DNA from: Desulfotalea psychrophila LSv54
GTDB lineage: Bacteria; Desulfobacterota; Desulfobulbia; Desulfobulbales; Desulfocapsaceae
DNA: 32,000 bases
Direction of reading: 5' to 3'
NCBI RefSeq assembly: GCF_000025945.1
Contig: NC_006138.1
Span: 2,460,001 to 2,492,000, forward strand
Position 1 is the stretch's first letter. Every line of letters begins with the position of its first letter. This document shows positions 2,336 through 25,295 of this stretch, piece after piece. A program made the translations under genes and the position numbers. The notes beneath the pieces were generated by a model. That model was not told the DNA's origin. It saw only the letters and a program-made list of their open reading frames with translations, and ran no database searches.

Positions 2336-3610
2336 TGATCTTACCCCAGTTTTGTGGAGCCTTAGTTAAGCTAATTTTTGCAACAAATCAAACTGCTCTT
2401 CGAACTCTGCAGAACTTTTGTAGCCATTAGCTGAATGTCTTCTTCTGCGGTTGTAGTATGCCTCGATGTACTGGAAAAGTCCGTATTTTGCTGCTTCAAT
2501 ATCTCTAAAACTCCTATGATGGATATATTGTGTTTTCAACGTATAAAAAAAAGACTCTGCAACAGCATTATCCCAGCAATTACCCTTACGACTCATACTT
2601 TGCCTGAAGTCTTTTTCTTGGAGTAGCTGTCTATATTCCTTGCTTGCGTACTGAACACCTCTGTCGCTATGGACAAGCATTTCTTTGGTTGGGTTTCTTC
2701 GCAAAATTGCTTTACGTAATGCCCAGATTGTAGATTCTTTTTCAAGTGACGTACTCAGATTCCAAACAACAACTATTATAGAATAAAGGTCTATAAAAAC
2801 AGATAAATATACCCACTTGCTACCTACCTTGATGTAGGTTATATCACCAACCCAAACCTTGTTGGGGCTGCCACAGTGAAATTTCTGTTCAAGATATTTG
2901 GTGCAACCGGAAAAGCATGATTCGACTCAGTCGTAGTTTTGAACTTCTTTAGAGACTTACACTGCATTGAAGACTCTTTCATAATTCGAGCGACACGCTT
3001 TTTCCCCACATCTGCAACCTGAGCCTCTGCTCGCAAATCAGCAGTAACCATAGGACTACCAACCATTCCACCATGCTCAACATAGAGCTCCTGGATGAGA
3101 TTTTTAAGAATATTATTCTCTCTGCAGCGCTTTGAAATTGGTTCCTGCAACCAACGATAGTAGCCACTCTCTGAGATCAAAAGAGTCTGGCACATTTTCT
3201 TCACAGTGAAACGAGAGTGATGATTCCTGATAAAAGTATAATGCATCACTGTGTCCTGCTGAAAATGGCCATGGCTTTTTTTAGAATGTCCCTCTCCATA
3301 TTGATATTCTTCAATTCTTTCTCAAGCGCTTTGATCTTTTTCTGCTCAGAAGTAAGGGCTAAAATACCGTTACCAGGGAACGCTATCTCTCCCTACTCTT
3401 CATATTTTTTCTCCATTGATAGATCAAATCCACATGAATGCCTAGGTTCTCGGCAATTTCTATAATAGTTCTAACAGGTTCTAAACTTAAAAGGACAGTA
3501 CTACGTTTAAAATCTGCATCCCTTTCTACGCTTTTGTATAATCATGTGAGCCTCCTGTTACTCATATTATAACGAGTCCATATTAACTCCACAATATCGG
3601 GGGAGGATCA
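2336..3610 (-). mobile_element. IS3-family insertion sequence, decayed (1275 bp)
   Basis: Terminal inverted repeats: tgatcttaccccagttttgtggag (plus strand at 2336) versus tgatcctcccccgatattgtggag (minus strand at 3610). orfA/orfB layout with an A7 slippery run (ctaaaaaaagcc) at the orfA/orfB overlap. No clear target duplication. Confidence 0.85.
2366..3545 (-). pseudogene. IS3 transposase orfAB, inactivated
   Basis: orfB has the rve/DDE region (VWVGDITYI...HSDRGVQYAS...NCWDNAVAESFF...YNRRRRHSANGY) but carries a frameshift at the G4 run 2864-2867. orfA (start 3545, RBS GGAGG) has two frameshifts at G3 and A6 runs plus an in-frame TAG in KKYEE*GEIAFPGNG. Confidence 0.8.
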
Positions 3611-5510: not shown

Positions 5511-6751
5511 TGAGTCGTCAGAAAATTGCAATCATTGGCTCTGGTATCTCGGGACTTACTTGCGCCCATAAGCTTGCACCACACCATGATATAACGGTTT
5601 ATGAGGCAGCCGATTATATTGGCGGCCACACCCATACCGTACAGGTAGAAAAAGAGGGAGAGGTTTCAAACATTGATACTGGATTTATCGTATTTAACGA
5701 CCACACCTACCCGCACTTTATCGAACTCATGGAGAGCGTTGGCGTCGTAGCCCAGCCCACCGAAATGAGTTTTTCGGTAAAAAACGACGCCATAGGTCTT
5801 GAATATAACGGCAACAATCTCAACAGCCTCTTTGCCCAACGCAGGAATATTATCAGCCCGCGCTTCCTTAGGATGATCGTAGACATTGTTCGGTTTAATA
5901 AAGAAGTGGTAGTAGCCGCAAAAAAAGATCAGGACCTAACCATCGGTGACTTTTTGGCAGTAAAAAAATACTCCCCCATCTTTAAAGAAAACTATCTATT
6001 ACCGATGATATCAGCAATCTGGTCCATGGGACTGGAAAGTTGTATGGACTTTCCCCTACATTTTTTTGTAAAGTTTTTCGACAACCATGGCCTGCTCAAT
6101 TTGGTCAACAGACCACAATGGCGCTCAATCATTGGTGGTTCAAGTAGCTATATCGCACCTCTAACAGCCTCGTTTAAAGATCATATCCAGCTAAGCACAC
6201 CGGTTATTCGTGTTGAACGTGAAGACACATTAATTAATATCGTTACCGAAGAGGAAACAGTGCCTTTTGACCAAGTCGTTTTCGCCTGCCATGGCAATCA
6301 GGCCCTGTCTCTTCTTGCTCGCCCCACCAACAAAGAAACCTCTCTCTTAACAGAGTTTACAGCTTCAGCAAACAGGGTGATTCTGCATACGGATACCTCT
6401 TTTCTGCCAAAGAGAAAACTTGCCTGGGCCAGCTGGAACTACAATATGGTTGATGCGGCAAAAGAGCAGACGACCCTTACCTACAATATGAATATCCTGC
6501 AGAGACTTACTAAACAACACACCTACCTTGTGACGCTCAACCAGGATATTTCTGAACAACATATACTTCGCACCTTTAACTACAACCACCCCATCTTCAC
6601 CAAAGATGCAATCCAGGCTCAAGAAAAATGGGAAAATATTTCTGGAAAAAATCGTAGTCACTTCTGTGGAGCCTACTGGTTTAACGGCTTCCATGAAGAC
6701 GGCGTTAAAAGTGGTCTGCGGGTGGCCGCTGCACTGGAGAAGGGATTATGA
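5510..6751 (+). CDS. FAD-dependent oxidoreductase (amine-oxidase-like)
   Basis: IAIIGSGISGLTCAHKLA...VYEAADYIGGHTHT dinucleotide-binding motif. Its start overlaps the SDR stop (TAATG). Confidence 0.8.
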   Translation: MSRQKIAIIGSGISGLTCAHKLAPHHDITVYEAADYIGGHTHTVQVEKEGEVSNIDTGFIVFNDHTYPHFIELMESVGVVAQPTEMSFSVKNDAIGLEYNGNNLNSLFAQRRNIISPRFLRMIVDIVRFNKEVVVAAKKDQDLTIGDFLAVKKYSPIFKENYLLPMISAIWSMGLESCMDFPLHFFVKFFDNHGLLNLVNRPQWRSIIGGSSSYIAPLTASFKDHIQLSTPVIRVEREDTLINIVTEEETVPFDQVVFACHGNQALSLLARPTNKETSLLTEFTASANRVILHTDTSFLPKRKLAWASWNYNMVDAAKEQTTLTYNMNILQRLTKQHTYLVTLNQDISEQHILRTFNYNHPIFTKDAIQAQEKWENISGKNRSHFCGAYWFNGFHEDGVKSGLRVAAALEKGL

Positions 6752-7485
6752 AACCTTCACTTTATATTGGCACAATAGCCCACAGCAGGCAAATTCCCAA
6801 AAAACATCATTTCCAGTATCCGCTTTTTATGTGGTTTCTCAACCTCGATGAACTGGACCAACTACCTTATCTAGGGAAATGGTTTTCCACCTCAAAATGG
6901 GCACTCAGTCGCTATCACCGCCCGGACTACTATGGTGATCCAGACATCCCTCTCGCCGATGCTATTAAAGAGAAGATGCTGGAATTAACAGGCCATACGG
7001 TTGAAGGTCAGGTTTACGGGTTAATGAATATGCGAACTCTGGGCCTCTATTTTAGTCCGGTAAACTTCTATTACGGCTATGACAGTCTTGGGAAATTAAG
7101 CCATTTCATGGCAGAAGTATCTAATATACCTTGGAATGACCGGCATCAATATTGCCATTATATCACCGAAAGTGACTTAACTCCTGAGAACCCAAAACAA
7201 TTTCATGTATCCCCTTTTAACCCGCTCAACCAACATTATCGATGGGGACTCAAAGCTCCGACTGAAACAACTTTCGTTCAAATAGATGTCAATGATGAGC
7301 GGGGCCATATTTTTACCGCCAGGCTCGACCTAAAAAGACGGCCACTCACTTTAAAATCAGTGCGCCACGAGCTACTAAGAAAACCAGCAATGACCATTGC
7401 TATGGTGGCTGGAATTTACTGGCAAGCATTGAAAATCTATATAAAAGGTGTTCCCTATATTACTTACAAAAAGGAGACGATATGA
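6748..7485 (+). CDS. DUF1365 family protein
   Basis: GTIAHSRQIPKKHHFQYPLFMWFLNLDEL is the characteristic DUF1365 N-terminus. ATGA overlaps occur at both ends. Confidence 0.75.
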   Translation: MKPSLYIGTIAHSRQIPKKHHFQYPLFMWFLNLDELDQLPYLGKWFSTSKWALSRYHRPDYYGDPDIPLADAIKEKMLELTGHTVEGQVYGLMNMRTLGLYFSPVNFYYGYDSLGKLSHFMAEVSNIPWNDRHQYCHYITESDLTPENPKQFHVSPFNPLNQHYRWGLKAPTETTFVQIDVNDERGHIFTARLDLKRRPLTLKSVRHELLRKPAMTIAMVAGIYWQALKIYIKGVPYITYKKETI

Positions 7486-16414: not shown

Positions 16415-16443
16415 TTGACATTTGCCAATATCTTTGTTAAAAG
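16415..16443 (+). promoter_or_regulatory. Candidate sigma70-type promoter upstream of the ablA leader
   Basis: TTGACA (16415-16420), 17-nt spacer, TAAAAG (16438-16443). Confidence 0.3.
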
Positions 16444-16799
16444 ATATCACTCTTTGTCTTGGCGGCGTTCGCTTCCTGAACGGACCGATCATAGACCCGC
16501 AGTTGAGGTGGACTGTGCTTACCCTTGGTAGGTTCGGGACGAATCCTCTTTCTTCTGGGCAGCACTGGCTTGAGGCACTCCGCTTCAAGATTGGGTGCGG
16601 GTGGCCCTTACCTGTAAAAAAAAACAGCACTTCAATCTTCGGGCACTCTGCTGCCTGGCCTTCCTATTTATCTGTGGCACGAGCTATTCCGTCATATTTC
16701 ATTTTGTTTGCCTTATGCAGGTGTCCTCCTAACGTCTTCATTTCCCTATGGGGAATTGTAGAATTTTGTTTAGTTAATACAAGCAAAGGAGAACAGACA

Positions 16800-18119
16800 A
16801 TGCCTATTTACTCAAATACTCAGCAGAATATTGCTGAGCAACTATCAACAGAAAAAATAAACATATCCAAATGGATGGATTGGAAATGGCAACTGAGAAA
16901 CAGCATTAAATCAGTTGAGCAGTTTGAAAGCCTGCTTGGCATTGAAATGGACGAGAAATACCGAAAAAAAATTAAAGAGACACTACGTAAATTTCCTCTG
17001 TCGATAACTCCTTATTATCTTTCTCTGATCAATAGCGAGGATTACAGCAACGACCCGATTTTTATCCAGTCCTTTCCGTCACCGAAGGAATTGGACATAT
17101 CCCCGCATGATATGGAAGACCCTCTTGCGGAGGACAAGGACAGCCCTGTTCCCAATATCACTCATCGCTACCCGGACCGGGTTCTTTTGCAAGTCAGCAA
17201 CACATGCGCAATGTACTGCCGGCATTGCACCCGAAAACGAAAAGTCGGCGATGTTGACTCTATCCCGCTTAAGCAGGAAATACTTAATGGTATTGAATAT
17301 ATCAGACAGACTCCTGTCATCAGGGATGTTCTCCTCTCCGGTGGTGATCCTCTCATGCTCTCTGATGATTATCTTGACTGGATCCTCTCAGAACTTCGCA
17401 CAATTCCACACGTTCAGGTCATTCGTATAGGCTCCAGAATGCCGGTCGTATTACCTTATCGTGTTACTGATAGCCTTGTCGCGATGCTCAAAAAGCATCA
17501 TCCGCTCTGGGTTAACACCCACTTTAATCATCCAAGAGAGGTCACTGCCTCAACTCGTGAAGCCTTAGCTAAGTTAGCAAATGCAGGCATCCCTCTTGGC
17601 AATCAAAGTGTATTGCTTGCTGGTGTAAACGACTGTCCCCGCATTATGAAGAGCCTGGTTCATAAACTGGTAGAAAACAGGGTTCGCCCCTACTACCTCT
17701 ATCAATGTGACCTAGCTGAAGGACTCAACCATTTCCGCACTCCAGTAGGTAAGGGTATTGAAATATTGGAAAGTCTGCGTGGCCATACTAGTGGTTTTGC
17801 AGTACCTACCTATGTGGTAGACGCTCCAGGCGGAGGGGGGAAAATTCCACTTAACCCAAATTATCTGGTTTCCTTTTCTACAAATAAGGTCATACTGCGC
17901 AACTATGAGGGGGTCATTACAACTTATCAGGAACCAGACAGCTATGAGTCTACCTTTTGTGATCGCAAATGTGCTGATTGCAACCTGCAATTATACCTTA
18001 ATGACGCTGAAGAGTCTCGAGCCATTGGAATAGAAAAACTGTTGGCAGACCACGACCGGACAATTTCTTTGGTGCCTAAGAAAAATGAACGTATGGAGCG
18101 GAGAGACAGTGAGCGATAA
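16800..18119 (+). CDS. ablA: Lysine 2,3-aminomutase (radical SAM)
   Basis: [12 protein letters not shown] radical-SAM cluster, SGGDPL, and the [12 protein letters not shown]...YYLYQCD...[19 protein letters not shown] KamA signature. The ATG at 16800 follows AAAGGAGAA; the upstream 378 nt of open frame are not protein-like. Confidence 0.85.
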
Positions 18120-18969
18120 GATAGAAATGTTTCGGGACTCCGTTATACAGCATGGACCGGAGAATGATCGCGTGTACGTTATGAAGACGACACGAACCGA
18201 CTGCCAGGATGTTATTCACTATGCCCTCAAGCTGGCCGACTCTAATGGCTACTCTAAAATTTTTGCAAAGTTCCCGGAGAGCTGCAAACAGTTCTTTGAG
18301 CAAAACATGTTCATTGAGGAAGCCAAAGTACCAGGACTCTTCAATGGAGAGGAGTGTGGCTACTTCTCTGGCAGATACATTGATTTGGCACGCAAGCTTG
18401 AAACCAGGCCTGAACTGATTGAGCAAGTAATTGAGGCCGCCCATAGCAAATACTCCGATGGGGTGGAGTCACACATGCTCTCCCCTGGACTTACATGCCG
18501 GATCATGAACAGAAACGACATTAATACAATGGCGTTTCTGTTCAAACAGGTTTTCCCTACCTATCCATTCCCAATTCATGATCCGGATTACCTGGCAACG
18601 ACCATGGAACAAAATGTCATCTATCACGGCATTTTCAAGGGAACAGAACTCATTGCCCAGTCGTCTGCTGAAATCGATTTCAACGCCCGCAATGTTGAAA
18701 TGACCGATTTTGCCACACACCTAAACAGCCGTGGCAAGGGCCTTGCGACCTACCTATTGGCAGTAATGGAAGACGACGTCATGAAAAGAGGCGTGCAAAC
18801 CGCCTATACAATTGCCAGGGCATACTCCTTTGGAATGAACAGCACCTTTGCCAAGCGAGGTTATCAATATGCAGGTACACTCACCAATAACACCCAAATC
18901 TCAGGGCAACTTGAGAGCATGAATGTTTGGTACAAACAAATTCATGGTTATATGGAGGGCAGGGCATAA
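18085..18969 (+). CDS. ablB: Beta-lysine N6-acetyltransferase (GNAT)
   Basis: Lies immediately downstream of, and overlapping, ablA. GNAT core ([10 protein letters not shown]...) and an N-terminal [17 protein letters not shown] pattern as in AblB. The start is uncertain: ATG 18085, GTG 18109 or ATG 18127, all in frame. Confidence 0.7.
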
Positions 18970-19313: not shown

Positions 19314-19323
19314 CTATGACGAT

Positions 19324-19362
19324 AGCTGTCAGTTATCAGCTGTCAGCTGTCAGCTGTCAGCT
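19324..19362. repeat. Heptanucleotide tandem repeat (AGCTGTC)n, about 5.5 units
   Basis: agctgtc agttatc agctgtc agctgtc agctgtc agcta. Related heptamers (cagctat, cagctac) occur at 1951-1972 and 21901-21914. Confidence 0.8.
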
Positions 19363-19805
19363 AAAAGAAGAAAAAGAAAACAGCAGTTAACCACAGAGGG
19401 CACAGAGAACACAGAGGAAATTAATTAAAAAGCACAGAAAAACAGGACTTGCTGGAGATTATAGCTTAATCGCGGAATGGCGAGTTCAAAAGAAAAGCAG
19501 TTAACCACTGCTTAGAGGACACAGAGGGGGAAATATTTAAACTGCTCAAATGGAGAAAAGAGCATAACTGAGCTGTAGTAGCCCTTGCTGATCAACTCGA
19601 TTTATCCCCTCTTACAAAAGATCCATGCCCTTCACTGCCTTTTCTTACATCCCCGTTTCACTGCTCCCCTGCCTACGGTAACTTCAAATTATGCTATTGC
19701 AGTTCCTGACAGTTCATAACTAATAACTCGCCCATTCCGCTACGCGTCACTGCTAAAACTGATAGCTTGCCATTCAGCTAACATTTCACTCCTACAGCTG
19801 ACACC

Positions 19806-20096
19806 TTTTTTCAACGTGTTGCTTGAGAGCGTTTTTAACTTTTTAGGAATAGGGATGGTGTTGAGTGCTTGTTTCTGGGTACATCAGAGACCTTCCTCTT
19901 TGATGCTAGGTAACAGAGGAATCCTTGTACCTCTTTTGTGCCCATATTCTTTGGGGTGGTCTGCATACTTGTAGTGCTGTAAATATCTGATGACCCAAGA
20001 GTAGTAGCTTCTCTCTGTGGTGAATGAGTAGTAGTGAAAGCGCAAAATCTCCTGCACCTGTCCCACAAGTTTTAAGTTAGGATTAGGGGGAATCAA
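19806..20096 (-). pseudogene. Integron-integrase-like tyrosine recombinase, N-terminal fragment (frameshifts, internal deletion, same distal truncation as copy 1)
   Basis: LVGQVQEILRFHYYSFTTERSYYSWVIRYLQHYKYADHPK / MGTKEVQGFLCYLASKRKVS / TQKQALN parallels IntI1 [29 protein letters not shown]...HP..[31 protein letters not shown] (from memory). TTG start. The fragment joins directly to the IPxPxKVK...KQHVEK tail. Confidence 0.65.
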
Positions 20097-20232
20097 GCTT
20101 GCTTTTCATCTTTGCCTCCTCTATATTCAGATCTGCAGAAAAAAAGAGGTACTATAAAAGTAATATGCCGAAATTTTTCTACTTATCAACACTGTTAGCT
20201 TGATTTTCATACTATTGGTTACTTTATAAATT

Positions 20233-21009
20233 ATGCAAAAAAATAAAACATATAGAAATGTTAGATTTAGAACAGATGCGCTGAAAGAGGCTTATAAGAA
20301 GCTTTCGGAATTTGCCGTGCAAAATGAGCTAGAAATAGATTGCGTAATATTATCAGTTGAGCATGATGACTCTGAATGGCACTATGATACTCAAGACGAA
20401 TTCTTTTCAGATTATAGAAAGTATCAAAACTCTGCATCTTTTCGACATTGGTGTAATAAGTTGTCCGTTCATGTAAATGTTTCTCCAACTTATACAGTAA
20501 TCGAAGTCAGTAGTAGTGATAGGGCTTTTATATATAGTATTTTTGAAATATTTGAAAAATACGCCACAGAAGATTATGTTACGCCTTCTCCTGAACTTGA
20601 AGAAAATCTGACAGTTTTTATCGGTCATGGTGGATCAAGCCAATGGCGGGATTTAAAAGATCATCTCCAAGATAAGCACAATATAAAGATTGAAGCATAC
20701 GAAACTGGTGCTAGGGCTGGTCACACGATCAGAGACATTCTTGAAGATATGGTTAATAACAGTACATTTGCTTTGTTGGTAATGACAGCCGAAGATGAAC
20801 AAGACACAGGCCAATTGAGAGCAAGGCAAAATGTAATCCATGAAATCGGTTTGTTTCAAGGGAGGTTAGGGTTTAATCGGGCTATTGTTTTAATGGAAAA
20901 TTCAACCGAAGAATTTTCTAATATTGCAGGTGTCCAACAAATTCGATATAGCAACATTACTGAAACTTTTGGTGAAGTACTCGCAACCATCAAGCGTGAG
21001 TTTAATTAA
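20233..21009 (+). CDS. TIR-like domain protein (CAP12/Pycsar-effector type, PF10137-like) with unrecognised 125-aa N-terminal domain
   Basis: Residues 127-245: TVFIGHGGSSQW...IKIEAYE...TIRDILEDMVNNSTFALLVMTAEDE...RARQNVIHEIGLFQGRLGFNRAIVLMEN..EEFSNIAGVQQIRY. This matches the hFIxHG / TxDD / RxRxNVxxExGxFxGxLG / SDxxG pattern of that family (from memory). Very AT-rich. ATG start with a weak RBS. Confidence 0.75.
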   Translation: MQKNKTYRNVRFRTDALKEAYKKLSEFAVQNELEIDCVILSVEHDDSEWHYDTQDEFFSDYRKYQNSASFRHWCNKLSVHVNVSPTYTVIEVSSSDRAFIYSIFEIFEKYATEDYVTPSPELEENLTVFIGHGGSSQWRDLKDHLQDKHNIKIEAYETGARAGHTIRDILEDMVNNSTFALLVMTAEDEQDTGQLRARQNVIHEIGLFQGRLGFNRAIVLMENSTEEFSNIAGVQQIRYSNITETFGEVLATIKREFN

Positions 21010-21107
21010 GTTAACAAGGCAATTAAACGGAAAATTTACAGTTGGCTGTTTTTCGTTCCTCAAACATTATAGCCAACTATAATTTTCCGCTTAGTGCGGC
21101 GTTATAT
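21010..21107 (+). other. attC-like imperfect palindrome directly after the TIR-like ORF
   Basis: GTTAAC core at 21010-21015. Left arm cggaaaatttacagttggct (21028-47) and right arm agccaactataattttccg (21071-89) pair with one bulged base plus one mismatch. 23-nt loop. GTTATAT at 21101-07. Length 98 nt, within the attC size range. No U-tract. Confidence 0.4.
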
Positions 21108-21142
21108 TCAAAAACAATAGGCCTCTGTGGATAAAGAACTTC

Positions 21143-21892
21143 ATGGTGTTTTTGTTGTTGTTGGATGATCACCGCCTGGCCTGGAAACTCCGACAGTACT
21201 GTCCCCTGAAAATGCAACGGTTTCAGGTCGACAATCCCCAAAAAGCAGGCACCTCTCTGGGCCATTATAGTGATATGAGCGAATTGGATGAGTATATCCG
21301 AGAGGCCCTACCTCCCAAGGAGCTGCGCTGTGCAGAAGATGGCCATAATAGAGAGGCCCATAAAATCAACAATGACTACCAGCATCGCCAAGATGTGCGA
21401 GAACGAGGCTCGGAAAAGATCTTTAAAAAATATGAGGCCACAGGAAAGTTAGATAAATACGAGACAATTTGTGACGACGACCTTCTCCTCTTAGAGCTGA
21501 TCCAAGACTCTCTCATCCAAAAGATATGTGATAAAGAGATCATCATCGAAACCAATCCCACCTCCAATGTCTATATCTCATTTTTGGGTGATCATGCCGA
21601 GCATCCCATATTCCGCTGGCATCCTATTAACAGGGAAGACTTGAATACAGGTGCTCGCTTCAACCCCCATGGCCTGCGAACCAGCAAGGCCAAGGTCTGT
21701 ATAAACACCGATGATCCGGCCATCTTTGTCACCAGTCTGCCCAATGAGTATGATCTTCTTAAGAATGCCGCACTTTCGAAGCATTCTCATAATCAGGAAG
21801 AGGTTGAGGTGTGGTTGGAGGGGATTCGTAAGACAGGCCTCGATATCTTTGACTACGACCATCTGGAGCATGAGTATAGTAAGATTCAATGA
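21143..21892 (+). CDS. Adenosine/AMP-deaminase-superfamily protein, C-terminal portion only (probable 5'-truncated remnant)
   Basis: IIIETNPTSN (res 133-142) and KVCINTDDPAIF (res 184-195) are the beta7/beta8 motifs of the ADA amidohydrolase fold. No HxH or HAGE motifs are present. The frame opens only at 21095, inside the palindrome flank. Confidence 0.55.
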   Translation: MVFLLLLDDHRLAWKLRQYCPLKMQRFQVDNPQKAGTSLGHYSDMSELDEYIREALPPKELRCAEDGHNREAHKINNDYQHRQDVRERGSEKIFKKYEATGKLDKYETICDDDLLLLELIQDSLIQKICDKEIIIETNPTSNVYISFLGDHAEHPIFRWHPINREDLNTGARFNPHGLRTSKAKVCINTDDPAIFVTSLPNEYDLLKNAALSKHSHNQEEVEVWLEGIRKTGLDIFDYDHLEHEYSKIQ

Positions 21893-22010
21893 GTTACTGA
21901 CAGCTACCAGCTATAGCAGTGGAGCGTAGCGAAATGGCGAGCTATCAGCTAAAAGCTGTCAGTAGCAGCAAAGCGTAGCGAAGTGGCGAAAAACAAAAGT
22001 ACCAGAGCAG
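21893..22010. repeat. Heptamer-rich segment with two more copies of the GCAGYRRAGCGTAGCGAARTGGCGA arm
   Basis: 21916-21941 gcagtggagcgtagcgaaatggcgag and 21965-21989 gcagcaaagcgtagcgaagtggcga. A 9-bp inverted repeat ctgacagct/agctgtcag lies at 21897-21905 / 21954-21962. Confidence 0.7.
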
Positions 22011-22085
22011 GCACCTGCAAAGCCTGACCTGGAGACAAAATGCTCCTTACAGGTCTCTGCAAAGGCTCTCTCAGCAATAAAGTAG

Positions 22086-22305
22086 CCCTTGCGGGTTCAC
22101 GCAAGGGCTGTCGGAGCAATAAAATGGTCTTTGCGGGTTCATGCAAGGGCTGTCGGAGCAATAAAACGGCCTTTGCAGGTTCATGCAAGGGCTGTCCGCT
22201 TAATAAGTTAGCCTTTGCGGGTTTGCGCAAGGGTGTTTTATTAGTTTTGCGGATCTCTGCAAGGTGTTTTATTAGTTTAGGGCTTTGCGGGCTTCTGCAA
22301 GAGGG
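22086..22305. repeat. Array of six 16-bp palindromes TTGC-N8-GCAA; the first three units are exact 42-nt tandem repeats
   Basis: TTGC starts at 22089, 22131, 22173, 22215 (spacing 42, 42, 42), then 22247 and 22285. Units 1-3 carry GCAATAAAA tails and units 4-5 carry the reverse complement TTTTATTAG, so the array has overall dyad symmetry. Half-sites in inverse orientation occur at 22013-22022 and 22057-22066. Confidence 0.85.
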
Positions 22306-22351
22306 GGATCGCACGGAGCTGAGCACCGGAGAAGTTGGCGAAAACCGAAAA

Positions 22352-22633
22352 GAAGTTAACCACAGAGAGCACTGAGAACACAGAGGGAAGAATATTTAAA
22401 CTGCTAAAAAACTACAGGAAAGATAAGGTCATAGGTGTTTCAACAATAGAGTCTTTGCGGGCGAGACAGGCGGCCCAGGATAAAGCCGAGTGTTACGAGT
22501 GGGCAGGACGGATTTACCGAGTAGCTTTAGAAATTAAGCACAGAGGACACTGAGAGAAAAGCATAGTTGATCTGTTCCAGCCCCTACGAAGTAATCCTTT
22601 TTTTTCATCCTACAAAACTCTGTGTTCTCTGTG
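22352..22633. repeat. Dispersed purine-rich ACAGAG modules shared with 19384-19550
   Basis: gaagttaaccacagagagcactgagaacacagagggaagaatatttaaactgctaaaaa (22352-22410) resembles gcagttaaccac...agaggacacagagggggaaatatttaaactgctcaaa (19497-19550) and 19384-19417. Further copies lie at 22537-22565 and, inverted, at 22609-22633. Confidence 0.75.
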
Positions 22634-22647
22634 TTCTCTGTGGTAAA

Positions 22648-22672
22648 TGTTTTTTAGCCTGCCGGGACAGAG
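22648..22672. terminator. Hairpin downstream of pepN
   Basis: cctgccggga-cagag-tcccggcagg, a 10-bp GC-rich stem 20 nt after the pepN stop. The U-tract is poor on the minus strand. Confidence 0.4.
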
Positions 22673-22691: not shown

Positions 22692-25295
22692 TTAGAGCAA
22701 CTTGCTTACCACCTCGTGAACATCCGTTGAGAGATTTTCGGTGGCCAGAACCCGTTGCATCTCTTCTTTGGCGCGGAGTTGATGCGTCTCATCATATTTG
22801 CGCCAGCCGGTAAAGGCCGATGAGAGTCGGGCGGCTATTTGAGGGTTTGCCCTGTGCAGGGCAATGATATTATCGGCCAGAAAGGCGTAGCCGGCTCCGC
22901 TGACATCGTGGAAGCAGAGATGGTTATTGTTGGCAAAAAAGCCAATAAGGGCTCGGACCTTATTGGGGTTGGCCATGGAGAACTGAGGGTCTTTCATCAG
23001 TTTCTTCACTTGAGTCAGGGTATCCCCCACGGTTGATCCTGCTTGAATGGCAAACCACTTATCCATGACCAGAGGGTCTGCCTGCCACTTGTTGTAAAAA
23101 TCGGCAAGTAACTCCTTCTTAAGGGGAGATTCCGTATCAACCATGGCGGCCAGGGCGGCGATGGCATCGCTCATATTGGTTGCGCTATGGTACTGGTCGG
23201 CACAGGTCTGCCACCAGTCGGACATGGTTACTAAATAGGGCAGTACCGCATTTTTTATTGCCCTTCGTCCCATGGCGGCAGGAGTTATGGAGTAGGTTGT
23301 CTCTTCCTGATTCTCTCGATAGACCCTGGCCAAATCGTCTTGGCACTGTCGGGCAATCTCACTACGGACAAAGTCATGGGCCCTATGCAGATTCTCCACA
23401 TCTACCTGCGCCATCAGGGAGGCTAGATAACGTTCTTCGGGGAGACGAATGGCCTGGGCCACCAGGCTCTGGTCACCAACTGCCCGCAGATTTGCCTGCA
23501 TGGCCTCAACAAAGGCAGGTTTAAGGGTCAAAGTCTCACCTCTTTGCAACTGGTCCACCACCCTGAGAATGGTTTTAATGGTGAGGCGTTGACTTGCATC
23601 CCAGCGATTAAAGAGATCGCTGTCGTGGGCCATGAGAAAGACCAACTCGGCAGAGGGTTGAAATGGCTTAACTCGTACCGGGGCAGAGAAGCCGCGGAGG
23701 AAAGAGAGGACAGGCTTTTCCTTGATACCTTCAAAGAGAAAACACTGCTCAGTCTCCTTAAGATGGAGCACCCTGGTACCCTCGGCCAGCAGATCCTGGC
23801 CGTTTTCTCCAAGCAGACCCACCGCTACGGGAATATGAAAGGGGGCCTTGCTCTCCTGGCCCGGGGTGGGAGGACAGGTCTGGCGAATATAGAGACGATA
23901 GGTCTCCTCGTTGTTATTCCACTCTTCCTTCACCTCAAGACATGGGGTACCTGCCTGGGAGTACCAGTTACGAAAGAGGAGAAGATCAACGCCGGAGGCA
24001 TCCTCCATTGCTGCCACAAAATCATCGCAGGTTACGGCCTGACCATCGTGACGGACAAAATAGAGGTCCATGCCGGCCCGAAATTTCTCTGCCCCCAGCA
24101 GGGTATGGATCATGCGGATCACTTCGGCGCCCTTATTATAGACGGTGGCCGTATAAAAATTATTTATCTCCACATAGGCATCGGGACGAATGGGATGGGC
24201 CATGGCCCCGGCATCCTCCTTGAACTGATGGTCGCGCAGGACTTTGACATCGTCAATGCGCTGAACGGGCCGTGAGTTCATATCCGAGGAGAACTCCTGA
24301 TCGCGAAATACGGTCAGTCCTTCTTTAAGGCTGAGCTGAAACCAATCACGACAGGTCACCCTGTTACCGGTCCAGTTATGAAAATATTCATGGGCGATAA
24401 CACCTTCAATCCCCAGATAATCGCGATCGGTGGCTGTTTCGGGCAGGGCCAGGACATATTTGGAGTTAAAGACATTGAGGCCCTTATTCTCCATGGCCCC
24501 CATATTAAAATCATCCACGGCCACAATCATAAAAATATCAAGATCATACTCAAGACCAAAAACATCCTCGTCCCACTTCATTGCTTTTTTCAGGGAGACC
24601 ATGGCGTGGTCACACTTTGTCTTGTTTCGTTCTTCAACAAATATCTTCAGGGCTACTTCTCGACCGAAACGAGTGGTAAAACTCTCCTCAATGGCAACAA
24701 GCTCACCTGCCACCAGGGCAAAGAGATAGGATGGTTTGGGGTGTGGATCCTGCCAAAGGGCAAAGTGTCTGCCGCCTTCAAGTTCACCTGCATCTATCCT
24801 GTTGCCATTTGAGAGCATTACGGGACAGGCCTTTTTGTCGGCTTCGATACGGGTGGTAAAGGGGGCAAGGACACAGGGACGATCAGGATAGTAGGTAATC
24901 TTGCGAAAGCCCTCTGCCTCACACTGAGTGCAGTAATTACCGTTTGTTCTATACAGTCCCTCAAGAGAGGTGTTCTTATCCGGATAGATCTCAGTCACCA
25001 ACCGGAGTATAAAATTTTCTGGTACATCTGCAATACGCAGGAACTTATCCGTTTGCTCATAGTCGTTTTTATTAAGAGTGCGACCATCAAGGGCGACCTC
25101 CTTAAGAAGAAGCTCTTCACCGAGCAGGAGAAGACCCTCGGCAGGGTTCCCATCCGGGTTTTGTCTGTAGGATACCGTGGCTGTAACCACGGCTCTCTCT
25201 GCAAAGAGTTGGAACAACAGCTCAGTTTTTTCCACTAAAAAGGCGGGGGAGGTATAATCTTTTCTATAAATTGTCTCATGCTCTGGAGATTGCAT
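22692..25295 (-). CDS. pepN: Aminopeptidase N (M1 family)
   Basis: GAMENKG exopeptidase motif and the HEYFHNWTGNRVTCRDWFQLSLKEG zinc-binding motif. 867 aa. Confidence 0.9.
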   Translation of the reverse strand: MQSPEHETIYRKDYTSPAFLVEKTELLFQLFAERAVVTATVSYRQNPDGNPAEGLLLLGEELLLKEVALDGRTLNKNDYEQTDKFLRIADVPENFILRLVTEIYPDKNTSLEGLYRTNGNYCTQCEAEGFRKITYYPDRPCVLAPFTTRIEADKKACPVMLSNGNRIDAGELEGGRHFALWQDPHPKPSYLFALVAGELVAIEESFTTRFGREVALKIFVEERNKTKCDHAMVSLKKAMKWDEDVFGLEYDLDIFMIVAVDDFNMGAMENKGLNVFNSKYVLALPETATDRDYLGIEGVIAHEYFHNWTGNRVTCRDWFQLSLKEGLTVFRDQEFSSDMNSRPVQRIDDVKVLRDHQFKEDAGAMAHPIRPDAYVEINNFYTATVYNKGAEVIRMIHTLLGAEKFRAGMDLYFVRHDGQAVTCDDFVAAMEDASGVDLLLFRNWYSQAGTPCLEVKEEWNNNEETYRLYIRQTCPPTPGQESKAPFHIPVAVGLLGENGQDLLAEGTRVLHLKETEQCFLFEGIKEKPVLSFLRGFSAPVRVKPFQPSAELVFLMAHDSDLFNRWDASQRLTIKTILRVVDQLQRGETLTLKPAFVEAMQANLRAVGDQSLVAQAIRLPEERYLASLMAQVDVENLHRAHDFVRSEIARQCQDDLARVYRENQEETTYSITPAAMGRRAIKNAVLPYLVTMSDWWQTCADQYHSATNMSDAIAALAAMVDTESPLKKELLADFYNKWQADPLVMDKWFAIQAGSTVGDTLTQVKKLMKDPQFSMANPNKVRALIGFFANNNHLCFHDVSGAGYAFLADNIIALHRANPQIAARLSSAFTGWRKYDETHQLRAKEEMQRVLATENLSTDVHEVVSKLL

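Follow-up and report, generated by a model that had tools for sequence, protein, structure and literature searches.

A 258-amino-acid (aa) protein of Desulfotalea psychrophila LSv54 raises two questions: what a TIR domain of the kind found in cyclic oligonucleotide-based antiphage signaling systems (CBASS) and pyrimidine cyclase systems for antiphage resistance (Pycsar) does when it is joined to an unfamiliar N-terminal region, and how its gene came to lie beside the remnant of an integron integrase with no apparent partner. We analyzed this gene within a stretch of 32,000 nucleotides (nt) of contig NC_006138.1 (positions 2,460,001 to 2,492,000), referred to as the window, whose own numbering is used throughout. 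The window had been read once before from its letters alone (the first-pass annotation). On balance, we favor a reading in which the gene is a candidate stand-alone, single-protein abortive-infection system that combines a new sensor domain with a TIR domain of the CAP12/Pycsar clade and is carried on an integron cassette.

The C-terminal half is a CAP12/Pycsar-type TIR domain

The gene and its two domains are as follows.

20233 to 21009, + strand: gene for the N-domain + TIR protein (258 aa, ATG to TAA; the end coordinate counts the stop codon)
20233 to 20607, + strand: N-terminal domain (N-domain), residues 1-125, alpha+beta fold, presumed sensor or regulatory module
20614 to 21006, + strand: CAP12/Pycsar-type TIR domain, residues 128-258, putative catalytic Glu204 at 20842-20844

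Our open reading frame (ORF) call agrees with the 258-aa ORF of the first-pass annotation. The four motifs quoted there (TVFIGHG, ALLVMTAEDE, RARQNVIHEIGLFQGRLG and FSNIAGV) are all found in the translation, the codon at 20842-20844 reads GAA as expected for Glu204, and the protein is 100% identical to a D. psychrophila entry named "TIR domain-containing protein" (P0001). The proposal that the C-terminal half belongs to the CAP12/Pycsar type was borne out by the PF10137 profile, which matches residues 128-240 over model positions 2-118 of 119 (E = 5e-29; 101.2 bits against a cut-off of 24.7). The PADLOC TIR-effector, PycTIR and PDC-S35 models and the NCBIfam Cap12 models also match, in each case within the TIR region. 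A signaling TIR of the Thoeris ThsB type was considered and set aside, as PF10137 rather than PF08937 is the sole match and a conserved adjacent gene is missing.

Structure comparison gave the same placement. We built a full-length AlphaFold2 model from 28 homologues, and its TIR half matched TIR-STING cryo-EM chains (9lmq and 7un8, the best matches), SARM1, AbTir and animal TLR TIRs in the Protein Data Bank (PDB) by Foldseek, with probability 1.0. The family profile aligns R-A-R-Q-N-V-I-H-E-I-G-L-F with R-D-N-V-V-F-E-F-G-L-F of Cap12 and the PycTIR equivalent; NVIHEIG thus falls on the NVVFEFG of both, and Glu204 on the glutamate of the N-V-x-x-E-x-G motif. E204 is invariant across the 28 aligned homologues, and every family-invariant residue is kept in the D. 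psychrophila ORF. The aligned glutamate is treated as catalytic for the CAP12/Pycsar TIRs in the literature, where these TIRs form a single clade whose studied members deplete NAD+ and are activated by oligomerization. From this alignment, cleavage of NAD+ through Glu204 is predicted for the 258-aa protein.

The gene is under strongly purifying selection, with a dN/dS (nonsynonymous to synonymous substitution rate) of 0.08 against an 85%-identical homologue on a metagenomic contig (L005) at a dS of ~1.07. In the homologue alignments, the TIR half is far better conserved than the N-terminal half. A shortened version of the TIR half, 65% identical over residues 147-258, was also seen in the Microcystis phage vB_MaeS-yong1 (MT855965.1, L092:2501-2851), where it lies beside a DDE transposase and is annotated as a "CMP/hydroxymethyl hydrolase".

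The N-terminal domain is undescribed and exchanges its effectors

Residues 1-125 had been described as resembling nothing recognizable, and they have no Pfam match and no PADLOC match even at E <= 10. The structural check proposed for this region, AlphaFold followed by Foldseek, gave a confident model of the isolated domain (predicted local distance difference test, pLDDT, 93; predicted template modeling score, pTM, 0.83) with the element order beta-alpha-beta-beta-alpha-beta-beta-beta-alpha. Nothing significant was found for it in the PDB (best E = 6e-3, template modeling score 0.28) or in the viral structure library BFVD (best E = 6e-3). Weak Foldseek matches to TBP-like, CYTH and Roadblock folds were rejected at template modeling scores of at most 0.44, and by the same method the domain is unlike STING, SAVED, CARF, SLOG, Macro or the N-domain of the solved PycTIR chain. 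In the libraries and literature searched, the N-domain and the family that it defines are undescribed. The first-pass view of its novelty thus stands in that sense, but the domain is not peculiar to one gene, being instead the signature of a large family that spans phyla.

We searched a profile of the N-domain alone against 1.84 billion representative proteins, which matched 557 of them, and sorted the best 150 by architecture.

61 of 150: N-domain + TIR (9 with tandem N-domains)
15 of 150: N-domain + middle region of ~130 residues + 1-3 predicted transmembrane (TM) helices (1 with tandem N-domains)
5 of 150: N-domain + other, unclassified C-terminal region
69 of 150: too short for classification (mostly short proteins, probably cut at contig ends)

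The N-domain therefore occurs before either of two outputs, and a common signature (K3, K5, Y7, F12, W49, D52, E56, F57, R62 and F107) is found in the TIR and TM fusions alike. It behaves as a portable module with swappable effectors. One sensor with an alternative TIR or membrane output is the pattern of PycTIR/PycTM and of TIR-STING/TM-STING. Longer homologues carry two N-domains in tandem before the TIR, and the occurrence of single and tandem forms suggests a dimer as the working state of the domain. Neither Pfam nor PADLOC annotates the TM-fused proteins, and tyrosine recombinases adjoin these relatives. A DUF4145 gene precedes two independent N-domain + TM relatives (P0136 and P0147; L091:49-855 and L094:618-1253); near the second of these pairs lie a helicase and a phage-type integrase.

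A solitary gene in the window and in the loci of its homologues

The full protein is matched by 5,657 clusters at 90% identity, most of which align along its whole length (100%) at 45-85% identity, and the family is encoded in 363 of ~185,000 species genomes from many phyla. Neighbor clustering covered the loci of the best 80 of the 363 genome matches, with three ORFs on each side. No conserved neighbor was found in these 80 loci save for a small downstream ORF in seven Bacteroidota genomes, and no Pfam family recurred more than twice among the 149 immediate flanking ORFs. The Bacteroidota ORF (~120-135 aa) lies directly 3' of the TIR gene in L021, L029, L032 and four other loci (e.g., L021:6779-7141) and is possibly a clade-specific partner or regulator.

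In the window itself, the first-pass annotation had reported no cyclase, SIR2 or ThsA-like partner, and we likewise found none among the ORFs of at least 120 aa, which apart from a transposase fragment are all metabolic. Nor was there a partner gene beside ~75 homologues, none of which adjoins a CD-NTase, a PycC or a TIR-signal producer. Apart from the Bacteroidota ORF, no conserved neighbor accompanies the gene in the window or in the homologue loci, and its distribution is thus stand-alone.

This distribution bears on an alternative in which the protein is an orphan effector and supplies the NADase arm of a split system. Its N-domain would then be the receptor of a diffusible nucleotide signal that comes from an enzyme of the phage or from one encoded elsewhere in the genome, for example a cyclase or a second TIR protein. 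The closest characterized TIRs, Cap12 TIR-STING and PycTIR, are indeed ligand-gated, the TIR or TM outputs parallel the Pycsar and STING effectors, and the single or tandem N-domain recalls the nucleotide-binding dimeric or pseudo-dimeric site of CARF and SAVED proteins, with conserved K/R/D/E and aromatic residues common to both effector types. However, no cyclase or TIR-signal producer lies beside the gene here or in the ~75 other genomes, and the Foldseek comparison separates the N-domain from STING, SAVED, CARF, SLOG, Macro and the PycTIR N-domain. Cassette mobility (see below) also takes the gene alone into new hosts, and dependence on an unlinked partner is therefore disfavored. We regard an orphan effector as unlikely.

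The identity of the neighbors is relevant to a second alternative, namely that the protein is not anti-phage at all and is a TIR-like nucleotide or nucleoside enzyme, or a regulated toxin, serving metabolic regulation, stabilization of a cassette array or inter-bacterial conflict. Source databases call the family only "nucleotide-binding protein", and many of the 149 flanking ORFs, indeed most immediate neighbors, are ordinary core metabolic or housekeeping genes. Among closer relatives, copies are found beside type IV Thoeris genes, between toxin-antitoxin pairs (one relative), or alone between housekeeping genes, and integron arrays are rich in addiction-type genes. Against this, the studied members of the TIR clade are immune NADases, no antitoxin-like partner is conserved, and the patchy spread over phyla, the carriage on cassettes and islands, and the swapping of TIR and TM outputs are hallmarks of defense genes. 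Strong matches to defense models also occur among the 149 neighbors (Shedu SduA, Gabija GajB, a defense-associated reverse transcriptase (DRT), PDC-S02, PDC-S35 and a type II methylase). A role outside defense appears to us quite improbable.

One homologue (64% identical; L090:6880-7800) lies by itself, with a SIR2-family gene on one side and a deaminase gene on the other, and is flanked by a perfect 16-bp inverted repeat (AGTTTAGCTCCGACCC / GGGTCGGAGCTAAACT) in place of an attC, which hints at another mode of gene movement.

The gene is packaged as an integron cassette

The first-pass annotation had described the gene as packaged like an integron cassette, and comparative boundaries, the structure of the attC and an integrase remnant bear this out. 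The elements are as follows.

19854 to 20096, - strand: integron-integrase (intI) remnant; N-terminal ~80 codons with two frameshifts, lacking the catalytic domain
20097 to 20200, + strand: attI-like spacer ending in the core GTTAGCT (20194-20200), with the cassette junction at G20194|T20195
20195 to 21101, + strand: integron gene cassette; 907 nt, 35.4% G+C, one ORF + attC, boundaries from alignment
21009 to 21107, + strand: attC, 99 nt; R'' AGTTAAC (21009-21015) and R' GTTATAT (21101-21107)

Both ends of the cassette are visible by comparison with relatives. Homology with an 85%-identical cassette on three metagenomic contigs (L005-L007) begins exactly at GTTAGCTT (G|TTAGCTT), at the core-like site already noticed at 20194-20200, and stops at the R' site that ends the palindrome downstream of the gene. 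A 63%-identical Vibrio parahaemolyticus homologue is a superintegron cassette on a 3.38-Mb contig, set among arrays of short genes that all read in one direction; a Vibrio attC precedes it, and its 5' end is the same GTTAGCTTATTTT. Its downstream neighbors vary by strain, and two of these loci (L001 and L002) diverge right after GGCGTTA.

The palindrome had been reported as a 98-nt element following the stop codon; it spans 99 nt and overlaps the last base of the stop codon. Its R'' and R' sites are each one mismatch from RYYYAAC and GTTRRRY. The bottom strand folds into a single long hairpin whose R''/L'' arm (the 3' arm) carries a bulged base and an asymmetric internal loop; the folding energy is -19.5 kcal/mol versus -7.9 +/- 2.35 for shuffled sequences (z = -4.94; none of 200 shuffles folded as well). 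Another attC of this sequence type lies before the homologous cassette in the metagenomic array. In three related attCs, standard pairs fill 84.5% of the pair cells, compared with 30-50% when partners are slid, and five pairs are altered on both sides in a compensatory manner. A covariance model (R1) built on the bottom strand of this attC family scored the attC in the window at 121 bits on the bottom strand versus 26 on the top strand. The same model recovered independent attCs from V. parahaemolyticus and Salinivibrio, none of them in the opposite orientation, and its scan of the window found no second attC.

A pattern-plus-folding detector also returned a single + strand attC candidate in the window. 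This detector is strand-blind and too strict, missing the Vibrio and L005 sites beside the gene; the few distant homologues that looked cassette-borne by it give no reliable fraction. Two further candidates were rejected. The first was a remnant of a DUF2971 cassette after the attC, as is present in L006, for which the alignment was no better than that of 189 of 1000 shuffles. The second was the palindrome at 21893-21965 as another attC; its cores are TAC/GTA rather than AAC/GTT, and it belongs to a AGCTGTCAGC repeat that recurs at 19324-19362. In the metagenomic L005 array (6864-6873 and 5660-5680), the R' cores read GTAGGGC and GATTGAAC instead of GTT..., with an R'' of TCTAAT, and this array may itself be decaying.

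Judged by its boundaries and attC, the segment 20195-21101 is, on sequence grounds, a genuine integron cassette.

The cassette is the last one of a decayed integron

The divergent integron-integrase-like pseudogene proposed in the first-pass annotation was found where expected, with an ORF that ends at 20096, 137 nt from the ATG of the TIR gene. This ORF (19884-20096) matches positions 8-57 of the integron integrase model NF011946, and the match continues across three reading frames after frameshifts. The frameshift-corrected peptide of 90 aa matches the integron integrase model TIGR02249 (E = 3.7e-15; model positions 2-71 of 315). A complete, functional integron was rejected, as intI is reduced to this part of the model and carries two frameshifts. 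In the spacer, the GTTAGCT junction is preceded by ...ATCAAC-ACT-, resembling a simple site; we know of no general model for attI sites. The cassette sits at this putative attI as the only one remaining of a decayed chromosomal integron.

Recent acquisition of the gene had been proposed in part from its base composition. The counts given for it were both exact (18 G+C in the first 60 nt of the gene and 36 in pepN nt 23401-23460), and the gene as a whole has 35.8% G+C, compared with 44.4% for the window, 51% for pepN, and 45-51% for the flanking ablA/ablB-like genes and pepN together. Other parts of the window are as AT-rich as the gene. Low G+C is a sign of foreign origin, not of recency, and recency was not supported because the integrase is a decayed stump and dS to the nearest relative is ~1.

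The same decay invites a third alternative, compatible with any functional reading: the ORF may be a silent relic, intact in appearance, stranded in a dead integron without a working promoter and contributing nothing in D. psychrophila. The frameshifted integrase stump, the fragmentary neighboring rdrB and the repeat-rich junk DNA around the locus (both described below) are in line with it. No sigma-70-like promoter was found upstream on the + strand in a scan that covers this one promoter type, and the ATG has no clear Shine-Dalgarno sequence upstream, which leaves the ribosome-binding site weak. On the other side, the ORF is full length with all of its family-invariant residues, the attC and the attI junction are intact, and the promoter scan, as stated, was limited in type. 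We think a silent relic possible but doubt it.

The cassette lies in an apparently eroded patch of defense and mobile DNA

The next gene downstream, which the first-pass annotation had passed over, lies outside the cassette.

21143 to 21892, + strand: 3' fragment of the RADAR adenosine deaminase gene rdrB (249-aa ORF; last ~225 of ~850 residues)

The fragment begins ~70 nt past the attC R' site, lacks the metal-binding N-terminal part, and is annotated in the genome as an "amidohydrolase family protein". It matches the RdrB models of NCBIfam (NF041744; E = 1e-56, positions 627-850 of 850) and PADLOC (E = 3e-40, positions 679-909 of 914). A RADAR system was nevertheless rejected here, as RdrB is partial and no rdrA was found in the window. 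Nine homologues of the fragment were found, mostly on short contigs, with no close full-length relative by which to map the truncation point.

Repeat-rich non-coding DNA brackets the integron relic at 19320-19810 and 21895-22655. Runs of AGCTGTCAGC occur 12 times versus 2 expected, and a CACAGAGRRCACWGAG motif (CACAGAG-type) 8 times versus 0.07 expected, all within the two stretches. A 38-nt inverted repeat (22348-22385 / 22618-22655) surrounds 232 nt in a manner like that of miniature inverted-repeat transposable elements (MITEs). Four to five tandem copies of a 42-nt unit, each with its own palindrome (GCCCTTGCGGGTTCACGCAAGGGC), occupy 22075-22301, and the 111- and 125-aa ORFs overlapping them have no Pfam match. 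Because the integrase stump and the rdrB fragment both abut repeat-rich DNA, the region from the ablB-like gene to pepN (19320-22650) looks like an eroded patch of defense and mobile DNA.

Elsewhere in the window, a 136-aa ORF at 2839-3249 (- strand) with an HTH_21 domain (E = 1.5e-14) is an IS3-type transposase fragment in a low-G+C stretch. A lysine-2,3-aminomutase-like radical S-adenosylmethionine gene followed by a GNAT acetyltransferase gene (16422-18969, + strand) is the pair expected for synthesis of the osmolyte N-epsilon-acetyl-beta-lysine; the 565-aa ORF listed there probably has its start too far upstream. Scans of the window with Rfam and for tRNAs returned nothing.

A possible mechanism and what weighs against it

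If the gene is a stand-alone abortive-infection candidate, the following sequence of events can be envisaged. The N-domain, as a dimer, would keep the protein inactive until an infection trigger is sensed through its conserved charged and aromatic site; either a conserved product of the phage or a small ligand resembling a nucleotide might serve as this trigger. Its detection would lead to TIR-TIR oligomerization, the assembled TIR would cleave NAD+ with Glu204, and the infected cell would halt growth before the phage matures. The gene encoding this response would travel as an integron cassette. The NADase activity and the defense phenotype in this scheme follow the studied members of the TIR clade by analogy, and the trigger is proposed from the conserved site.

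A bolder version of this scheme, which we put forward only tentatively, makes the ~120-residue N-domain a new self-sufficient immune sensor. Acting as a homodimer or a tandem pseudo-dimer, it would be joined to a killing domain that can be exchanged, either a TIR NADase of the CAP12 type or a TM region that disrupts the membrane. The result would be a large family of single-protein abortive-infection systems that lack a cyclase and spread on integron cassettes and small islands. In this version, the ligand of the K/K/Y/F/W/D/E/F/R site would be a small molecule specific to infection, for instance a nucleotide made by the phage or under stress. By analogy, such a protein would follow STING- or PycTIR-like logic without a dedicated signal synthase.

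Several observations weigh against a stand-alone defense role. The association with defense genes is modest (~6 of 149 immediate neighbors), with many copies alone among housekeeping genes. The strongly conserved charged site of the N-domain would also fit a housekeeping ligand. Tandem or dimeric sensors typify receptors for second messengers made by a partner, and no partner was seen. The TIR half of the full-length model has a moderate pLDDT of 56-84, and the promoter and ribosome-binding site discussed above count on the same side. Finally, no experimental work on any family member was found in the literature on PDC-S35, PF10137, Desulfotalea integrons or stand-alone TIR systems.

If the family is defensive, it would add a widespread one-gene system (more than 5,600 clusters; 363 of ~185,000 species genomes) to those known. 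Recent systematic TIR surveys deliberately exclude stand-alone TIR proteins. The exchange of TIR and TM outputs, together with the single and tandem forms, offers a handle on what the N-domain senses and could reveal a new infection cue; interest in the family would be greater should the domain prove to sense a new infection signal. That TIR proteins can be NADase effectors is already established, as is the presence of defense genes on integron cassettes. What the locus adds is that integron cassettes carry N-domain + TIR genes beyond Vibrio and into the Desulfobacterota, and that a cassette can persist after its integron has decayed; the form that results (one attC with a pseudo-intI) is one that automated integron callers likely miss.

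Comparison with known systems

Among the closest characterized relatives is Cap12 TIR-STING from CBASS (SfSTING of Sphingobacterium faecium; 7UN8, 9LMQ). Both proteins belong to the same PF10137 clade, their N-V-x-x-E-x-G-L-F motifs align, and both join a sensor to a TIR in a two-domain layout. However, the domain order is reversed, with the TIR C-terminal in the window protein, which lacks a STING domain. Against the NCBIfam Cap12 equivalogs it reaches 41 and 37 bits where the cut-off is 450, over the TIR region only. Membership in CBASS as a Cap12 was therefore rejected, since the STING domain is missing from the protein and no CD-NTase was found in the window or beside the homologues.

PycTIR of Pycsar (8JSJ) shares the layout, with a C-terminal PF10137 TIR after an N-terminal regulatory domain and a similar size. 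Each family also has a TM counterpart, PycTM in the one and the N-domain + TM proteins in the other. In contrast, the PADLOC PycTIR model covers the TIR half only and the N-domains have no detectable similarity. The protein was not assigned to PycTIR, as no PycC cyclase lies beside any locus examined and its N-terminal region is not detectably similar.

PDC-S35, a candidate single-gene system in PADLOC for which we found no paper, comprises proteins of similar length (~230-280 aa) that likewise end in a CAP12-type TIR. Its five models all match the window protein at E ~1e-14. Of a score of ~53 bits, ~50 come from the TIR domain, and the TIR alone scores 47-52 bits. Because the N-domain alone is unmatched, the similarity to PDC-S35 is one of the TIR only. 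Membership was rejected on this result (nothing at E <= 10 for the N-domain), while a true PDC-S35 protein encoded next to one of the homologues scores E = 1e-75. By its sequence, the window protein is best described as a sister architecture of PDC-S35 with a different N-terminal domain.

The mode of carriage also has parallels. Defense genes have been reported as integron cassettes, both in sedentary chromosomal integrons of Vibrio and in mobile integrons (Darracq et al., 2025; Kieffer et al., 2025; Getz et al., 2025); the Darracq preprint makes no mention of TIR. The D. psychrophila gene resembles these in being a compact single-ORF cassette with its own attC and differs in its platform, a dead integron of one cassette in a psychrophilic sulfate reducer of the Desulfobacterota.

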